A stretch of 64,000 nucleotides of DNA from positions 3,424,001 through 3,488,000 of the forward strand of contig OZ240248.1 of NCBI GenBank assembly GCA_965198235.1, in the 5' to 3' direction. Shown here piece by piece: positions 40,463-49,188 of this stretch; positions within the stretch are counted from its first letter, which is position 1; each line of letters begins with the position of its first letter. Origin of the DNA: Candidatus Poribacteria bacterium. Lineage in GTDB: Bacteria > Poribacteria > WGA-4E > WGA-3G. Under the pieces are notes generated by a model. It worked only from the letters and a program-made list of their open reading frames with translations. It did not search any database and was not told the origin of the DNA. The position numbers and the translations under genes were made by a program.

Positions 40463-40705
40463 CTACATCAAGGCATCTTCGACTTCTTCAGGGAGTTCGA
40501 CTGTACTTGGGTCAACATCAATGGGATACTCAGTGCCGTACGCTTCAACAAGGTTATCAAAAGTGACGTTATCTACACGCTCAAGATCGTCACCCGGATG
40601 AACAAGCCATACACCATAACAGCCGTCACAACTGACGAGATCTACATCGTTTTTTTCAATTGGAAACTGCGTCAAGGGATTATTACAATCAGGGCAAGGT
40701 AGCAT
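40463..40705 (-). CDS. Small zinc-ribbon protein (zf-TFIIB-like) with acidic tail
   Basis: CPDC-x18-CDGCYGVW; GAGGAGG RBS. Confidence 0.75.
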   Translation of the reverse strand: MLPCPDCNNPLTQFPIEKNDVDLVSCDGCYGVWLVHPGDDLERVDNVTFDNLVEAYGTEYPIDVDPSTVELPEEVEDALM

Positions 40706-40754
40706 ATACGTTCCTCCTCGGAATAGTCTCGATCACACGATCGAGTGCTAAGGG

Positions 40755-41942
40755 TTAATCAGCAGCGGGGGCAAAGGTGTCAGGATTTTCCGCCGCGGCA
40801 TCATAATCGTCAATCAATTGAGTAATGACGGGGTTATCCCCGCAAAGTGGGCAGTTTTCATCTCGGTTGATTTTCAGTTCACGACAGGTCATGCTGAGTG
40901 CTTCGTAGAGGATGAGCCGCCCGATGAGGGGTTCGCCGATACCGATAATGTATTTAATCGCTTCGGTTGCCATCATGACACCAATTACGCCTGGGAGCAC
41001 GCCCAGGACACCTGCCTCACTTCAGCTGGGCACCATGCCCGGAGGGGGTGGTGTTGGGTACATGCATCGGTAGCACGGTCCCTCGTGTGGTTTAAAGAGC
41101 GATACCTGTCCCTCAAATTGGAAAATACTGCCGTGAACTATCGGCTTGTTCATCAACACCGCGGCATCGTTGACGAGAAAACGGGTCGCGAAGTTATCGC
41201 ATCCGTCGACAATCAGGTCGTATTCCGAAAAGATTTCTTCAACGTTATCCGCTGTCAAGCGGAGGTTATACGGTGTGATGTCGATATCTGGGTTCAAGGA
41301 CTTGATTGTCGTTGTCGCTGATTGAACCTTCGGTGTGCCGACCGATTCTGTACGGTGAAGGATCTGACGTTGGAGGTTGCTGAGCTCGACAACATCGGAA
41401 TCGATGATACCGAGGTGTCCAACACCGGCAGCACCGAGGTATACACCCGCGGGTGAACCTAAACCGCCCGCGCCGACGAGCAGCACCTTCGCATCAAGGA
41501 GTTTCGCTTGTCCCTGTTCTCCAACCTCAGTGAGCATAAAGTGGCGACTGTAACGATCCAGTTGCTCATGGGTCATTGGTTTATCTTGTGCAGTCGAGTA
41601 ACCCGCCGCCGTCCAATCGCGATATCCACCCGCAACAGAGACGGTATCGGTGTAACCCATTTCGCGTAGTGATTTCGCAGCGAGGAGGGAACGGAGTCCT
41701 GCTGCACAGTAAATGACGACCTTTTGGTTTCGGTCCGGGATGTAGTTCTCAACCGAAAATTCCAGCATTCCCCGTGTGACGTGCACCGCGTTGGGGATAT
41801 AGCCAGCGCGATATTCATCTTCGTCACGCACATCGAGTAGCACGAAATCGCTTTCTTTGTCCTGTTCGCTTTTTACCTCAGCGACGGTTACCTCCGGGAT
41901 TTCTGTTTTAGCTTCCTCAACGATTTGCCTATAGGATTTCAT
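40755..41942 (-). CDS. moeB: Rhodanese-MoeB/ThiF (MoeZ-like) adenylyltransferase, probable selenoprotein (TGA 41024-41022), 395 aa
   Basis: CAAGLRS rhodanese site; RYSRH, GAGGLG, SNLQRQ, CYRC, PPPPGMVPS-TGA-SEAGVLGVLPG, CPLCG; both ORF-track pieces are in one frame. Confidence 0.88.
40990..41007 (-). promoter_or_regulatory. Candidate bacterial SECIS hairpin
   Basis: CCTGGG-CGTGCT-CCCAGG starting 15 nt after the UGA, with G in the apical loop. Confidence 0.6.
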
Positions 41943-42026
41943 GAGATTTTTCTCCTGCGGAAAAGGAATATGAATATCCGAGTTTCATATTCTTGTTCCT
42001 TATGTTTTGTCTTTTGCACTTGCAAA

Positions 42027-42055
42027 ATTATATCACAACCACGTGATATTGTCAA
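42027..42055 (-). promoter_or_regulatory. Consensus sigma70 promoter of moeB with overlapping palindrome
   Basis: TTGACA-17-TATAAT exact match; ATATCAC-N6-GTGATAT at 42030-42049. Confidence 0.75.
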
Positions 42056-42391
42056 TCTTTTATTTTTTTAGGGCAGAAGGAGGGTAAGGATAGAAAAATG
42101 GCGGTTTCCTGATAGGAGTATCAGCAAGGATAGGCAGGGATCAACAATCAGAGGTCGGTCAAGTCGCGAGTCTGGGGTGCGATTCAGACCTGAGGCACAG
42201 AAAATGGAGAGAATTTCAGAGTATTCAGAGTAAAACGTAAAAAATGGAAAACTAAATAGCCCTGGCCAACAAACAATATTCCCTTGACTTTTTACTTGAA
42301 TATAGGGTAAACTTAAAACAAGTTATATCTGCGGGAAAACCCCATCCCCGAACCACTGTTATCCCAAATAAAATGAAGGTTACTGCCTCCT

Positions 42392-44317
42392 ATGCCGAAA
42401 CAGAATTTCAACGAAAAATTGACCGTACTCCTCAAAACTCATCCCGACTTCCTTGACGATGCAGGCGAACTCATCCTCGCCGCCGTCAGAGACCACGCAT
42501 GGCAACTCAACCACGACCTCATCAAACTATTGCTCACTGACGACGAAATAAAGACAACCTTCTTTGACGAAATTGACGGGCATTGGGTTTTCAACCATAA
42601 CACCTTCATCAATTACATCACCGACAAAAACTTCCTCGCCAACTCCTACACCCAATTCCGCAACAAGATCGGCTTGAACATCGGCGGCAAATTCCTACGC
42701 GAACGCGGCGAGGTGTCCCTCGTTTGGCCCTATAAAGATTGCGTCTTGGAGGGCGGGCAGACGAAAGAAGAGGAAAAGCGTAAAGAGATTTTCTTTAACG
42801 AAACCCTTGCCCAAGACGAAATCAATCGGATGTTCGATCCGAAGGTCCTCACCAACTATAAGCGCCACACTGCTGAAGGTGAACAAGCGGTAACAGAGAT
42901 CCAACGGGACGAGAACGGTATCATTCGCGAAAACCTCATCATCAAAGGCAACAACCTCATCGCGCTCCACACCCTCAAACAGCAATTCCGTGGACAGGTC
43001 AAACTGATTTACATCGACCCGCCGTATAATACCGGAAGTGATAGTTTCAGTTACAACGATAGTTTTAACCATTCCAGTTGGCTGACTTTTATGAGAAATC
43101 GGTTGGAAGTAGCAAGGGAGCTTTTGAAGGATGATGGCGTTATCCTGGTTCACATTGATGATCAGGAAATGCACTATTTGAAACTTGTAGCTGATGATAT
43201 ATTCGGCAGAGATAACTTCATCGCTACTGTTCCGAGGAAAACTCGGAGCGGAAAAAGCGATGTCCCTTACAAACTATCACAGGACTTCGACTGGATGCTG
43301 ATGTACACAAAAGGCACATCGAAAAAAGATAATCTCTTCCAGCGGGACGTTTCACGAAAATATTACAAGACCTCCGATTTTCCTGACGACGAATGGAGAC
43401 TAAGCGACCTTACGACTCAACGGACAATTCACGAACGACCTAATTCCGATTTCACATTGGTAAACCCGAGAAATGGAGAAGGATTTCCGGTAAATCCCAA
43501 TCGCTGCTGGGGTATCACCAAAGATTCAGTAGATGGATATCTCAGAAAGGGAAAAATAGTCTTTCCGGGTGACTATGATTTTCTCAGCATAAAGCGTCCT
43601 GCTATGCGGGTTTTTAAGTCGGAAGATATAGGAAAAATGGCTTATGTGTCTTCGGATTTTCTGAATCAGGTAATGGATGAATTACTGAAAAGTATGGTCA
43701 ACAGGAAGGGCACAGACGAAATTGTGGAGATTTTTGGGAGAAAAGCATTTGCCTATCCAAAGAATGAACTATTGATGCAACGCATTATTGAATACATAAC
43801 AAAAGCAGGAGATATCGTTTTAGATTTCCATTTGGGCTCAGGCACAACCGCCGCCGTTGCTCACAAAATAGGCAGGCAATATATCGGCATCGAGCAAATG
43901 GATTACGCCGAAACTCTCCCCGTTGAACGCTTAAAAAAAGTGATTGCTGGTGAACAAGGTGGCATCTCCGAATCCGTCAATTGGCAGGGCGGTGGTGATT
44001 TTATCTTTTGCGAACTGATGCTATACAATCAAGCCTACATAGACAAAATTCAATCTGCACACTCCTCCGAAGTGCTTGTAGCACTCTGGCGAGACATCGC
44101 CGAAAACGCGTTCTTGAACTGGTACGTCAACCCCGAAGTCCCAGAAGAAGCAATAAACGATTTCATCGCCATCGGTGATCTTGAGAAACAGAAGCATTTG
44201 CTGGTAGAATTGTTGGATAAAAACCAACTCTACGTCAACCTCTCCGAAATAGAGGACGCGGATTTTGAGGTGAGTGCGGAAGATAAAGTGTTGAACAAGA
44301 CTTTTTATGGAAAATAA
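42392..44317 (+). CDS. Type III RM-like adenine DNA methyltransferase (Mod)
   Basis: NLIIKGNNL, IYIDPPYNTG, YPKNE, LDFHLGSGTT, GEQGGIS..WQGGG. Confidence 0.9.
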   Translation: MPKQNFNEKLTVLLKTHPDFLDDAGELILAAVRDHAWQLNHDLIKLLLTDDEIKTTFFDEIDGHWVFNHNTFINYITDKNFLANSYTQFRNKIGLNIGGKFLRERGEVSLVWPYKDCVLEGGQTKEEEKRKEIFFNETLAQDEINRMFDPKVLTNYKRHTAEGEQAVTEIQRDENGIIRENLIIKGNNLIALHTLKQQFRGQVKLIYIDPPYNTGSDSFSYNDSFNHSSWLTFMRNRLEVARELLKDDGVILVHIDDQEMHYLKLVADDIFGRDNFIATVPRKTRSGKSDVPYKLSQDFDWMLMYTKGTSKKDNLFQRDVSRKYYKTSDFPDDEWRLSDLTTQRTIHERPNSDFTLVNPRNGEGFPVNPNRCWGITKDSVDGYLRKGKIVFPGDYDFLSIKRPAMRVFKSEDIGKMAYVSSDFLNQVMDELLKSMVNRKGTDEIVEIFGRKAFAYPKNELLMQRIIEYITKAGDIVLDFHLGSGTTAAVAHKIGRQYIGIEQMDYAETLPVERLKKVIAGEQGGISESVNWQGGGDFIFCELMLYNQAYIDKIQSAHSSEVLVALWRDIAENAFLNWYVNPEVPEEAINDFIAIGDLEKQKHLLVELLDKNQLYVNLSEIEDADFEVSAEDKVLNKTFYGK

Positions 44318-44628
44318 AAAAGCCAGGAATATAGGATTGTGCTGGGCCGTAGCCTTCCAATAATAAGGAGAAAGAATGACTGAGGAAAGAAAAGAGGAAC
44401 TAAGGCAGTTGCTACAGAAAGCAACTGCACCGGAGAATTTGGAAATTGGAGACAGGTTTTCATTTCTGCCTATAAACGTTTATAGAACGTACTTACAGCA
44501 GTACCGGACATCTTATTGGGTACATTTTAATCCCCATATTGTAAATGAAGGAATAAAATTAAAACTGATTAATTTCATCAGAGAAGAGTTCGCTCCATTT
44601 ATCCGTGAAGACCTGATTTTACCTGCTA

Positions 44629-45869
44629 GTAGTCGTTCAATGTTGAGTTTGTAGTAAAGTTTGTTGACTTTTTGGGATGTTCTGTGATATATTCTTGATA
44701 TAATTTGAATCTCATCTCAAAGAGGCCTCCGATGAAAAAACATAAAGTTGAACTGACCTGTGAAGAACGTCAGACGCTACAAACGTTAGTTCGCAAGGGA
44801 CAACACAGTGCACTGAAGCTCATGCGTGCCCACATTTTGCTGAAGGCAGATAGCAATGGCCCCGGCTGGACGGATGCCCAAATCGCCGAGGCGTTCGGGT
44901 GCCATGAGCAAACCGCCTACAATGTTCGCAAACGTTTTGCGAGGCGCGGGTGTCTCTCTGCCTTGGACCGCAAACCCCAAAGTCGACCGTCTCACGTGCG
45001 GAAACTTGATGGTCAAGGCGAGGCGCGTTTGATAGCCTTGGCTTGTAGCAATCCGCCCGAGGGGTTCTCTCAGTGGACGCTGCAACTGCTCGCTGATGAA
45101 CTCGTTGAACTTCAGATTGTTGAAAGTATCTCTATTGAAACTGTTCGACAGACCCTAAAAAAAACGCCTTACGTCCGCATCGGTGGTCCTACTGGGTGAT
45201 CCCACCCGATGAAGATGCAGACTTCGTTGCGGCGATGGAGGCGGTCTTAGAGGTTTACCAGCGCCCTGAAGACGCGCGGTTTCCCGTTGTCGCTATGGAC
45301 GAACGTCCCGTGCAGTTGCTCGAAGACATCCGGTCTCCTGTGCCTGTCAAACCCGGGCGCATCGCACGTATCGATTACGAGTATAAGCGCATTGACGTGG
45401 TTTCTGCTTTCTTGTTTACCAACGCGCTTCAAGGGTGGCGGCGGGTCTCAGTGCGTCAACGCCGCACTGCCATAGATTGGGCAGAGGAAGTCAAGCACCT
45501 TTTAGAGGAAGTCTATCCCGATGCCGAGCGAGTGACATTGGTTTGCGATAATCTCAATACACATAAACTTACCTCTCTCTATAAAGCGTTTGCTGCCGAG
45601 GCGGCACTTGGGTTGTCTTCACGGTTAGAGTTGGTGCATACCCCGAAGCATGGGAGTTGGTTGAACATCGCTGAGATAGAACTCAGTGTCTTCTCAAGAC
45701 AATGTTTGAATCGGCGGATCCCTGACTTAGAGACGCTTCGATCAGAGGCAGAGGCGTGGCAAGAGTATCGCAATAAGACTGCGAACCGGGTCGATTGGCG
45801 GTTTACTACACAAGACGCACGCATCAAACTCAAAAGACTATACCCTAAAACTCAACCTTGATGCACTAC
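44629..45869 (+). mobile_element. IS630-family insertion sequence
   Basis: IRs GTAGTCGTTCAATGTTGAGTTT / AAACTCAACCTTGATGCACTAC; TA duplication within CTAG. Confidence 0.93.
44732..45861 (+). CDS. IS630 transposase, -1 frameshift at A8 run 45157-45164
   Basis: HTH ORF A then DDE ORF B (MDE, DNLNTH, TPKHGSWLNIAEIE); -1 frame reads KNALRPHRWSYWVIPP. Confidence 0.9.
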
Positions 45870-45882
45870 TAGTTATTTTCTA

Positions 45883-46973
45883 TAGGACTTACGCAATAGT
45901 TTAGAAAAGTGTTATACTTAGAGATTATGAAAACCTTATCCCTCTCAGAAAAGAAGCAGCCGTTATTTTCGGATTACTGTCAGTTTCTGTTAGCAAGTTT
46001 CGACAACTTCACACAGACGTATTTTGCGGATCACACCGAGAAGTGGAGTCATGACCCACTCAATCGTCTGCTGCGTGAAGAACGTATCTCTGCTGGCGAC
46101 TTGTGGCGATCGGTGAAAAACGATATAGAGTTTCATCCAGACGGCTACCTCCTCTTTGACGATACCGTTGTGTCAAAACCCTACGGAAACCAAGCGATTC
46201 AACCGGTTCGCAGACAATGGAGCGGTTCTGAGAAGCGCGTCGTTGAAGGTATCGGTATTGTCACATGCGTCTATGTCCATCCAAAGACGCATGCCTATTG
46301 GATCATTGATTATCGTATTTATGACGTTGACCGAGATGCTAAAACCAAGTTGGAGCATCTTCTGGATATGTTGCGGAATGCTCATTTCGTCAAACGTCTA
46401 CCTTTTCGGACGGTGTTGATAGATGCCTGGTATGCTTCAATGAACGTCATGAAAGCGATTGAAGCACTTTCTAAAGTCTACTATGCGCCCCTGAAACGTA
46501 ATCGTCTTGTCAGCACTTCGGTAGAAACGCCTTACCCACGCATTGAGGCACTGACATGGACACCTGCTGAAGCGTCTGAAGGCACACTCGTGCATATCAA
46601 TAAGTTTCCCAAAGGTCATCAAGTGAAGGTGTTTCGGCTCGTGTCCGACTCCGGGCGCACGGAATATATTGCCACCAACGATTTATCTCAATCCGATACC
46701 GAGGCGACGCAACAGAAATGTCGTCTCCGCTGGAAGATTGAGCAACTTCACCGGGAACTGAAACAGACGACAGGGATTGGCGAGTGTCAGTGTCGTCAGC
46801 ATCGTGCCCAACGCAATCACATCGCCTGTTGTCTATGGGTCTGGGTCTCTCTGACGCGTGCTGCTCGGGCAGCCGGTCAAACCATTTATCAACTCAAGGA
46901 AAGTTTACGCCATGACTACATGCGACAACAACTTCAAAAACCTACTATTTCTGTCAATATTGCGTAAGTCCTA
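45883..46973 (+). mobile_element. IS701-family insertion sequence
   Basis: Perfect IRs TAGGACTTACGCAATA / TATTGCGTAAGTCCTA; 5-bp TSD TTCTA. Confidence 0.92.
45927..46967 (+). CDS. IS701-family DDE transposase
   Basis: FDDTVVSKPY, IDAWY, RWKIEQLHRELKQ, QRNH. Confidence 0.9.
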   Translation: MKTLSLSEKKQPLFSDYCQFLLASFDNFTQTYFADHTEKWSHDPLNRLLREERISAGDLWRSVKNDIEFHPDGYLLFDDTVVSKPYGNQAIQPVRRQWSGSEKRVVEGIGIVTCVYVHPKTHAYWIIDYRIYDVDRDAKTKLEHLLDMLRNAHFVKRLPFRTVLIDAWYASMNVMKAIEALSKVYYAPLKRNRLVSTSVETPYPRIEALTWTPAEASEGTLVHINKFPKGHQVKVFRLVSDSGRTEYIATNDLSQSDTEATQQKCRLRWKIEQLHRELKQTTGIGECQCRQHRAQRNHIACCLWVWVSLTRAARAAGQTIYQLKESLRHDYMRQQLQKPTISVNIA

Positions 46974-48138
46974 TTCTATTTGGAGGACCTAGCGAGGGAT
47001 TCTCTCTGGATGACCTACTCACACAACTTCTAAAAATTACCATTGCTCACGGTGTAGAAAGAGTAGTATCAGATTTTGATCGATGCACCACAGATAAGTT
47101 CGGTTCGGTTCAATATATTGCATTACTTGAGGGAATAAGACTAAAAACAGAGATCCAAGTTTTTGATGGAATACGGCTTGTTCCCCTTTCAAATTCAACC
47201 TTAGAACTCCCGCGTTATTTGTCTAATATTAGCATCAGTGGCACATCAGTAGATTTCTTCTTAGAAAAAACATTGCTCATCATTGATTGTTCTGTGTCCC
47301 CCATATTTCACAAACCTTTCGGATCAATAACATTTCAAGAATATGACGAGCGCGAAAAACGGGCATTTCAGATTGAGATGAGTAGCAAAGATTTTCCATA
47401 CCTTAAGGTGGATGATTTTCCTGTAATTCTTCTTTGCCAAGCATTGGCTTTAGCTTGCAATTCGGCAGTTGAAATTTCTCTCGTTACCAGATTTTTGGCG
47501 GAAGATAAACTCTATAATCTTAACTTCGGAATAGGTGGTGGAGTCTCTATGTATCGCGGTCCCTTTGGAACCTTCGCTGAGGCAGGGCAGCCTGAAATAG
47601 ATAAAGCCAAATTCCTGTACAACATCTTGGTCAACCCATCTTCAAACCTTAAGGAAAGACTGCGGATAACGATTGATAGATGGATAAAGTCAAAAGTAAA
47701 TAAGGATCCCGTTGATAGAATCATTGATCTAGGGATAGCCCTTGAATCCCTATACTTATCGGGGACAGAGTCCAAAAATGAAATACGTTTTAGGTTTAGT
47801 CTTCATGCTGCTTGGCACTTGGGAGAAAATAAAGAACATAGGGAAGGGCTAATGAAGAAGTTCAAGGCAATATATGATTGGCGTTCCGCGGTTGTTCACA
47901 CAGGGAAACTGCCCGAGAAAGGAAGGGGAAAAAAGAAAAAATCGTATACTCAAGAAGAGGTTAGAGAGTTTATCCGCAACGCTCAAGACTTATGTCGGGA
48001 CTCAATAATGAAGATTTTGGAAGAAGGGAAATTCCCCGATTGGAACAATTTAATACTCGGTTAAGTTGATATTTAACGCCGAACACTATATAATAAATTG
48101 TCGTGTAACACCAAATTAATTTTCCATGTTCATAGGCG

Positions 48139-49188
48139 ATGCAAAAAGAAACAGAATTACTCACTTTTTTCGATTTTCCAATTGAACAATTTCCAGACCG
48201 GAGCACGCGATGGCTGTTAGAAGACAAGGAAAACGTCCGGGGGTTGTTAGAAATTGTTGCCGAGCATCTGGTTGCGCATCTTGATTTTCGTCGACTCGCG
48301 CATATCAATAGGAGTTTTATCCCTGACAACCTTCGCGAGCAAGAATCCGACATCGTGTATAGGGTGCCGTTCCGTAGTGAATCGAAAACCGATGAACTCT
48401 TAATTTATATACTCATTGAGCATCAGTCGACGATCGACGTAACGATGGGATTTCGACTGCTGTTCTATATGACCCAGATTTGGGATTTCCAACGCCGCGA
48501 GTGGGAATCAAGCAACATTCCTAAAAGCCAGTGGCGTTTCCGTCCCATTATCCCGATTGTGTTTTATACCGGAGAGCAAAGATGGCAAACACCGCTAACG
48601 CTCAGGACTGTGATGGATTTGCCCGATGCGCTTTCCGAGTTCGTTCCGAAATTTGAGACCCTATTTTTCAGCGTAAAGGACACCGATGCAGCAAATCTAA
48701 CGAGAACCGACCATCCATTCGGATGGTTGCTGACCGTCCTACAAAAGGAGCATGCAAACAAAGAAGAGATGCGCACCGCGTTGAGGCAAGCGGTAGCACA
48801 TATTGACACCCTTGATGAAGAGAAAACGCAGCAGTGGCGACGGGCGGTTTTCTATCTGTATCTACTAATCCTCCATCGTCGTCCAACTGAAGAACACGAC
48901 GAATTGAAAACGCTGGTTCAACAGCAAATCCAAGAAACTTCTCGTAGAGAGGAGGGAGAAACAATGGCACAGACAATGGCTGAATACTTGATTGAACAGG
49001 GTGAGAAACGCGGTGAAACACAAGCGAAACGTGAAGCAGTCCTCAAACTGCTGCGATTTCGATTCAATATCGTTCCCGAATCCGTTACTCGCAAGATTTC
49101 CGTAATGCGGAGCCTTTCGCGCCTTGATGCACTCTTTGAGGCAGCCTTGATTGCCCAAACACTCGATGACATTGATTGGGAAGACTAA
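48139..49188 (+). CDS. Rpn/YhgA-like recombination-promoting nuclease (PD-(D/E)xK)
   Basis: ESDIVY, YILIEHQS, FRLLFYM, PIIPIVFYTG, EQGEKRG. Confidence 0.9.
   Translation: MQKETELLTFFDFPIEQFPDRSTRWLLEDKENVRGLLEIVAEHLVAHLDFRRLAHINRSFIPDNLREQESDIVYRVPFRSESKTDELLIYILIEHQSTIDVTMGFRLLFYMTQIWDFQRREWESSNIPKSQWRFRPIIPIVFYTGEQRWQTPLTLRTVMDLPDALSEFVPKFETLFFSVKDTDAANLTRTDHPFGWLLTVLQKEHANKEEMRTALRQAVAHIDTLDEEKTQQWRRAVFYLYLLILHRRPTEEHDELKTLVQQQIQETSRREEGETMAQTMAEYLIEQGEKRGETQAKREAVLKLLRFRFNIVPESVTRKISVMRSLSRLDALFEAALIAQTLDDIDWED

Follow-up and report, generated by a model that had tools for sequence, protein, structure and literature searches.

Two adjacent open reading frames (ORFs) on the minus strand of contig OZ240248.1 of a Candidatus Poribacteria bacterium are very probably a single selenoprotein gene, in which an N-terminal rhodanese domain is fused to a MoeB/ThiF-type E1-like adenylyltransferase. 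Its in-frame UGA would be decoded as selenocysteine 307 (Sec307) by SelB and tRNA-Sec by means of a downstream hairpin. The window, i.e. the whole stretch of DNA that was analysed, has a length of 64,000 nucleotides, and the coordinates below refer to it unless a position in the genome is given. The following features were located in and around the gene:

41952..41956, minus strand: AGGAG ribosome-binding site with a 9-nt spacer to the ATG, read from the sequence
40755..41942, minus strand: predicted rhodanese-MoeB/ThiF-type sulfur-carrier adenylyltransferase with Sec at 307, based on the frame, Pfam and NF006444
41607..41885, minus strand: N-terminal Rhodanese domain, residues 20-112 (Pfam, E 2e-19)
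40848..41552, minus strand: ThiF/MoeB adenylation domain, residues 131-365 (Pfam, E 6e-85)
41022..41024, minus strand: UGA, predicted as selenocysteine 307 in the crossover loop, based on the ortholog column and on alignments with Cys forms
40990..41007, minus strand: SECIS-type hairpin with a 6-bp stem, a 6-nt loop and frozen synonymous sites
40463..40705, minus strand: gene of an 80-residue Zn-ribbon protein (PF13453, Pfam), 50 nt downstream on the same strand

The gene was read as one frame of 395 codons (41942-40758, minus strand), with an ATG start at 41942-41940, a TAA stop at 40757-40755 and a sole in-frame TGA at 41024-41022, where the sequence runs PPPPGMVPS-TGA-SEAGVLG. The ORF listing cuts this gene in two, an ORF of 306 residues at 41022-41942 and one of 81 residues at 40755-41000. 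The first-pass annotation had taken both for a single frame with the TGA as its only break, and had noted that the downstream part retains the second zinc-binding cysteine pair. Both statements were borne out, the first by the sequence and the ORF listing and the second by C364 and C367 (CPLC), which lie 3′ of the TGA; the first pair, C290 and C293 (CYRC), lies 5′ of it.

The read-through protein shows the motifs of both domains. The rhodanese domain, which shares about 50% identity with its counterparts in PDB entry 6mxv, contains the active-site loop C79-AAGLRS, with the Cys79 codon at 41708-41706, and the adenylation domain contains the nucleotide loop GAGGLG. Scored with C substituted for U, the protein reached 535.2 bits against the NCBIfam model NF006444 (cut-off 449) and covered profile positions 4-382 of 387. 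Two profiles named for selenoproteins, NF041203 and NF045694, stayed below their own cut-offs for the read-through protein. Among 67 orthologs fetched from four families, with 60-96% identity to the gene in the window, Cys79, C290 and C293 were invariant, and C364 and C367 were both present in 65.

The small gene that follows encodes a Zn-ribbon protein with the motif CPDC...CDGC and an acidic tail. It was found downstream on the same strand at 45 of 47 loci of the order versus none of 34 distant loci, mostly at a distance of 35-50 nt and in one family at 453-1053 nt; at one locus (L049) it looks degraded. On the other side of the gene, positions 42392-49188 of the plus strand hold a type III restriction-modification methylase (42392-44317) and then three transposase-type genes (helix-turn-helix with DDE_3, DDE_Tnp_1 and Transposase_31). 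This flank looks mobile, since the methylase adjoins the MoeB gene in only 10 of the 47 order loci. An APS kinase about 3.4 kb downstream was considered as a clue to the pathway and set aside, the link being too weak.

The residue replaced by the TGA was assigned by HMMER alignment to solved structures. The TGA column coincides with Cys184 of E. coli ThiF (1zud), Cys187 of E. coli MoeB (1jw9), the ThiF and MoeB residue numbers having been counted by hand along the printed alignments, and with the cysteine of the SCGEAG motif of Chaetomium Uba4 (6yub). Cysteine occupies this column, by a simple motif match, in 109 of the 150 best representatives drawn from 1.84 billion proteins, and the remainder, save three which end early, did not fit the motif pattern. 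The three exceptions (P0008, P0018 and P0029) terminate one residue short of the column, which is what gene callers would leave of TGA-bearing genes. The structure alignments and the representatives agree with the earlier proposal that this column is the conserved cysteine of MoeB and ThiF, and the apparent stop almost certainly encodes selenocysteine at a catalytic cysteine position. In Uba4 the equivalent Cys202 (Cys225 in yeast) is the crossover-loop cysteine, which forms a thioester with Urm1 that is subsequently attacked by the rhodanese persulfide (PMC7527816, PMC6007339).

The distribution of the gene was assessed by six-frame searches of whole genomes with the read-through protein as query. 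A full-length match with exactly one TGA was obtained in 40 of 41 relatives, and the one-TGA form was present in 133 of 137 genomes of the order; in the other genomes of the class the fusion was absent (0/14 at E ≤ 1e-100). When all 176 genomes of the phylum were searched at E ≤ 1e-120, an ortholog was found in 153 of the 159 genomes belonging to the order and in none of the 17 outside it. For the six genomes of the order that gave no match, the completeness is 73-95%. All 150 matches listed of these 153 carry exactly one TGA, at identities down to 57-63%, and no Cys form occurs among them. In each of the 67 fetched orthologs the TGA stands in the identical column. The TGA form is therefore order-wide and, as far as these genomes tell, apparently fixed.

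In a quick tree of Sec and Cys forms, the order's Sec forms grouped as a single clade with support 99; its sister is a pair made up of one Sec form (L120) and one Cys form (L119), so that the Sec or Cys label needs two changes on the tree. Two Planctomycetota loci (L127 and L128) and the loci without the N-terminal rhodanese architecture had been left out of this tree by a length filter.

The element presumed to direct Sec insertion was described from the strand of the gene. A stem of six base pairs is formed by CCUGGG (41007-41002) and CCCAGG (40995-40990), enclosing the loop CGUGCU (41001-40996). The spacer between UGA and stem measures 14 nt (41021-41008), so that the stem begins at the 15th nucleotide; a hairpin of six base pairs 15 nt past the UGA had been reported earlier and is present as described. 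Neither its energy nor its presence was found to be a usable criterion. The folding energy gave z = 0.22, 112 of 200 shuffled sequences folding equally well, and energy was rejected as a measure. At the same codons, a number of Cys-type relatives fold with equal or greater strength, with strong folds in L136 (−20.3 kcal/mol), L178 and L121, and the presence of a hairpin was rejected as a means to tell Sec from Cys forms. The existence of the hairpin alone thus constitutes no evidence, since in any organism the codons for GVLGVLPG are apt to form one.

A different picture emerged from the synonymous sites. Out of 111 conserved four-fold-degenerate columns, only four had zero third-position entropy, and these are the consecutive codons 313-316, which make up the inner stem and the loop; the mean entropy of the four-fold columns was 1.48 bits. 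The seven-column windows of lowest entropy all fall between codons 305 and 326. The apical loop CGUGCU is small, contains a guanosine and shows no change in any of the 67 orthologs. Where the stem varies (C to U, A to G), G-U pairs preserve it in 63 of the 67, the outermost pair being lost in the other four; the wobble-compatible changes are one-sided, and no two-sided compensatory change was found among the 67 orthologs of the order. As a control, the Cys-type paralog was taken from 20 of the same genomes, where an almost identical peptide, SCQEAGVFGVLPG, is encoded with three to five different codons at each position and no common hairpin was found. It is these frozen synonymous sites that constitute the evidence for the element, and in the aligned genes they show selection at the RNA level beyond the protein code.

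Strong hairpins over the same codons are also present in the other TGA lineages (L120, and L127, L128 and L199-L210 of a Planctomycetota class), with the register shifted by one base and a five-base loop starting with GU. A scan of 40500-42200 with Rfam, at E values up to 10, returned matches at chance level only and nothing SECIS-like. Since the GVLGVLPG codons after the catalytic cysteine also fold in Cys forms, including L136, L178 and L121, this site may be predisposed to gaining a SECIS element.

Related genes were found in Planctomycetota. In one lineage of metagenome-assembled genomes (L127, L128, L199-L202), the rhodanese-MoeB gene of four genomes contains two in-frame TGAs, one at the E1 crossover-loop column and the other at the active-site cysteine of the rhodanese domain (U-GGGSRS). 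The TGA at the rhodanese site is followed about 20 nt later by a hairpin of its own, in which a two-sided change from C-G to U-A separates L199 from L202. A tRNA-Sec was detected in both two-TGA source genomes tested (G176 and G177). Eight further genomes of the same Planctomycetota class (L203-L210) have the TGA at the E1 column and an Asp at the rhodanese active site (YD-AGGNRS); in these genes Sec thus persists next to a rhodanese domain that is expected to lack catalytic activity.

The UGA at 41024-41022 would be decoded by SelB together with tRNA-Sec, brought to the site by the hairpin that begins 15 nt downstream. For the enzyme itself, the following reaction sequence is proposed from the example of Uba4. 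It would adenylate the C-terminal glycine of a sulfur carrier of the ThiS, MoaD or CysO type. Sec307 would then attack the acyl-adenylate to give a selenoester, or alternatively resolve an acyl-persulfide formed later, while the persulfide on rhodanese Cys79 would deliver the sulfur and the carrier would be released as a thiocarboxylate. Uba4, from which this carrier chemistry is inferred, is a eukaryotic protein with a C-terminal rhodanese domain. The genome contains four carriers of the ThiS/MoaD type, in these contexts:

Carrier 1: beside MoaE
Carrier 2: in a CysO-like cluster with a JAB protease, a PAPS reductase and a PALP enzyme
Carrier 3: a ThiS, with ThiO and ThiG
Carrier 4: beside a xanthine-dehydrogenase-type molybdoenzyme

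A stand-alone ThiF/MoeB paralog, of the Cys type and with no stop, accompanies the Sec form in almost every genome. None of the four carrier genes lies beside either E1-like gene, and gene neighbourhood was for that reason rejected as a clue to the pathway. The CysO-type cluster lies outside the window (G000:C1:1493644-1496471), and its carrier ends in GG plus two residues; the Sec enzyme may serve the pathway of this cluster.

Sec307 could also be taken to define a selenium-based E1, which passes the carrier C-terminus through a covalent selenoester and in which Sec plays a role apart from the rhodanese relay. To our knowledge, covalent selenoester chemistry has not yet been shown for any E1-like enzyme. 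We consider this reading unlikely, but keep it open because Sec is retained together with an Asp rhodanese site in eight genomes, is paired with a second Sec in four, and has no Cys counterpart among the 150 listed matches of 153.

It is very unlikely that the protein, as a genuine selenoprotein, serves in selenium trafficking instead, a role that the first-pass annotation had suggested beside sulfur transfer; it would then, for example, load a carrier protein as a selenocarboxylate for a seleno-metabolite or a seleno-modified RNA. The position of Sec in the relay would suit such a role, as would the additional Sec at the rhodanese active site of the Planctomycetota lineage. However, no selenium-metabolite genes were seen beside the gene and the neighbourhoods of the four carriers are ordinary, of the Moco, thiamin and CysO types. 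Selenoenzymes known so far mostly have Sec in place of a catalytic Cys and act on an unchanged substrate.

The decoding of UGA as selenocysteine is in agreement with the genome, which consists of 5.17 Mb in two contigs. The search for selA, selB, selC and selD, proposed by the first-pass annotation, recovered all four. The tRNA-Sec (selC) has the anticodon UCA, scored 78.1 bits (gathering score 47) and directly adjoins selB (348 bits); the matches for selA and selD were 592 and 360 bits. A tRNA scan of the 64-kb window itself was negative, the tRNA-Sec being located elsewhere on the contig. In a sample of 61 genomes of the order, every one had a SelA match above the cut-off. The selD gene, outside the window (G000:C1:3115227-3116150, minus strand), has an in-frame UGA of its own at the canonical site KCAG-U-ASK, followed about 15 nt 3′ by a small hairpin, GCUC-CGGGU-GAGC.

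Codon 307 might still be read through as cysteine or another standard residue, by a Cys-charged tRNA-Sec-like tRNA or by near-cognate suppression, which would leave an ordinary enzyme of the Cys type. Recoding of Sec codons to Cys with tRNA-Sec-like tRNAs has been described in some bacteria, and the column is Cys in most relatives. Against this stand the full Sec set of SelA, SelD, SelB and tRNA-Sec and the consideration that for a cysteine TGC or TGT would suffice, yet no listed match has adopted either. Reading as a standard residue was judged highly improbable, and the interpretation as selenocysteine was retained.

The sequence downstream of the TGA was examined for signs of decay. None of the 67 orthologs has a stop within 84 codons 3′ of the TGA. 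In 23 orthologs of the other families, the differences from the gene in the window after the TGA were distributed as 406, 195 and 895 over codon positions 1, 2 and 3, and in two distance classes the protein identity after the TGA was 59% and 72%, versus 63% and 74% before it. The absence of decay claimed earlier for this part was upheld by the open frames and the third-position excess.

These data bear on the possibility that the TGA is a true stop, so that a truncated product of 306 residues is made, with or without a separately started piece of 81 residues, from a pseudogene or a split gene. Standard ORF calling does yield exactly these two pieces, and the proteins P0008, P0018 and P0029 end just before the column. 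But the downstream 88 codons are open in all 67 orthologs and evolve like coding sequence, and they hold the second Zn pair and are required for the full match to NF006444. The GTG ‘start’ of the 81-residue ORF falls inside the hairpin loop, and no ribosome-binding site was seen before it on reading the sequence. In a pseudogene, moreover, a single TGA would not have stayed in the same column through four families with identities as low as 60%. Termination at codon 307 is extremely improbable on these grounds, and the selenoprotein remains the preferred reading.

Ten studies have public sequencing runs with near-identical sequence, and among the runs listed eight are recorded as RNA. Contigs were compared from two RNA libraries labelled sponge metagenome and from two other runs, together representing three studies; such assembled contigs drop rare variants and carry no expression level. 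They bridge the TGA, e.g. over 40980-41124 without differences and over 40980-41357, and none of the differences listed falls at 41022-41024, a further 88 differences lying outside the listing. The first-pass annotation had considered that reads might show TGC or TGT at this codon; no such difference was listed in the contigs of the four runs. The orthologs, for which it had suggested the same comparison, keep the TGA and the hairpin throughout the order, with Cys in none of the matches listed. That TGC or TGT was misread as TGA in sequencing or assembly has a negligible probability, given 153 separately assembled genomes with an ortholog, one TGA in each of the 150 matches listed, and contigs of four runs that bridge the site without a listed difference. 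The summed contig depth peaks over the TGA and the hairpin at 40964-41095 in the runs compared (e.g. 4748 versus about 300 in X7), which fits many related strains sharing the frozen stretch.

The gene belongs to a selenoprotein family that has been in print since 2005 and is not a new kind of system. Under the name ‘Molybdopterin biosynthesis MoeB protein’, a selenoprotein family new at the time was described from 11 Sargasso Sea sequences (Zhang, Fomenko and Gladyshev 2005, PMC1088965), the GOS survey of 2008 counted 19 Sec forms versus 2,262 Cys homologs in the MoeB family (PMC2398784), and reviews from 2022 and 2026 list the family with one Sec (PMC9312934, PMC13188914). As in that family, a COG0476/PF00899 protein is here encoded with an in-frame UGA that is followed by a hairpin, and most homologs have Cys in place of Sec. 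The published family is known from sequence only, and the accessible text of the papers gives neither the Sec column nor the domain architecture. Unlike it, the gene in the window resides in near-complete genomes, is apparently fixed throughout an order and has a SECIS element defined by synonymous constraint. Full-text literature searches, in which titles and abstracts were judged, found no biochemical study of a MoeB selenoprotein. This matches, together with the accessible text of PMC1088965 and PMC2398784, the earlier statement that Sec-containing MoeB forms are known from metagenome surveys and are biochemically uncharacterised.

In architecture the protein agrees with NF006444 (PRK08762, the rhodanese-MoeB ‘molybdopterin-synthase adenylyltransferase MoeB’), which it matches end to end and above the cut-off; it differs in that the crossover-loop Cys is Sec here, and the model is of the kind ‘equivalog’ and not an NCBI ‘exception’. 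With Uba4, MOCS3 and MoeZ the protein shares the combination of an E1-like adenylyltransferase and a rhodanese domain, and its Sec column corresponds to the cysteine described for the Urm1 thioester. Those proteins have a C-terminal rhodanese domain and a Cys, whereas here the rhodanese domain is N-terminal, at residues 20-112, and the residue is Sec, so that the protein does not belong to that group. Uba4 and MOCS3 are eukaryotic and MoeZ is bacterial, and the comparison concerns the way of working and not membership.

The adenylation domain resembles E. coli ThiF and MoeB (1zud, 1jw9), with a match of E ~1e-57, the same Zn motifs and a Sec column equivalent to Cys184 and Cys187, although both E. 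coli proteins lack a rhodanese domain and have Cys instead of Sec. In E. coli, ThiF becomes linked to ThiS through an acyl-disulfide at Cys184, and MoeB can dispense with Cys187, which by analogy counts against a catalytic role. Rhodanese-type selenoproteins with UxxG forms appear in the table of the 2026 review (PMC13188914). Their Sec sits at the sulfur-relay cysteine, as in the two-Sec relatives from Planctomycetota, whereas the rhodanese site of the gene in the window is Cys in 67 of 67 orthologs.

To the published family this analysis adds an order-wide, apparently fixed occurrence and a SECIS element defined by synonymous constraint. The annotation can be corrected accordingly, as standard gene calling splits the enzyme into pieces of 306 and 81 residues, in this genome and in at least 150 related ones. 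Libraries that bear the label sponge metatranscriptome contain near-identical sequence. With a defined gene and SECIS element, four candidate carriers and a Cys paralog for comparison, the enzyme offers a candidate with which the MoeB selenoprotein family could be studied at the bench for the first time. For the bacteria themselves, the predicted decoding would make one of the order's two sulfur-carrier activators selenium-dependent.
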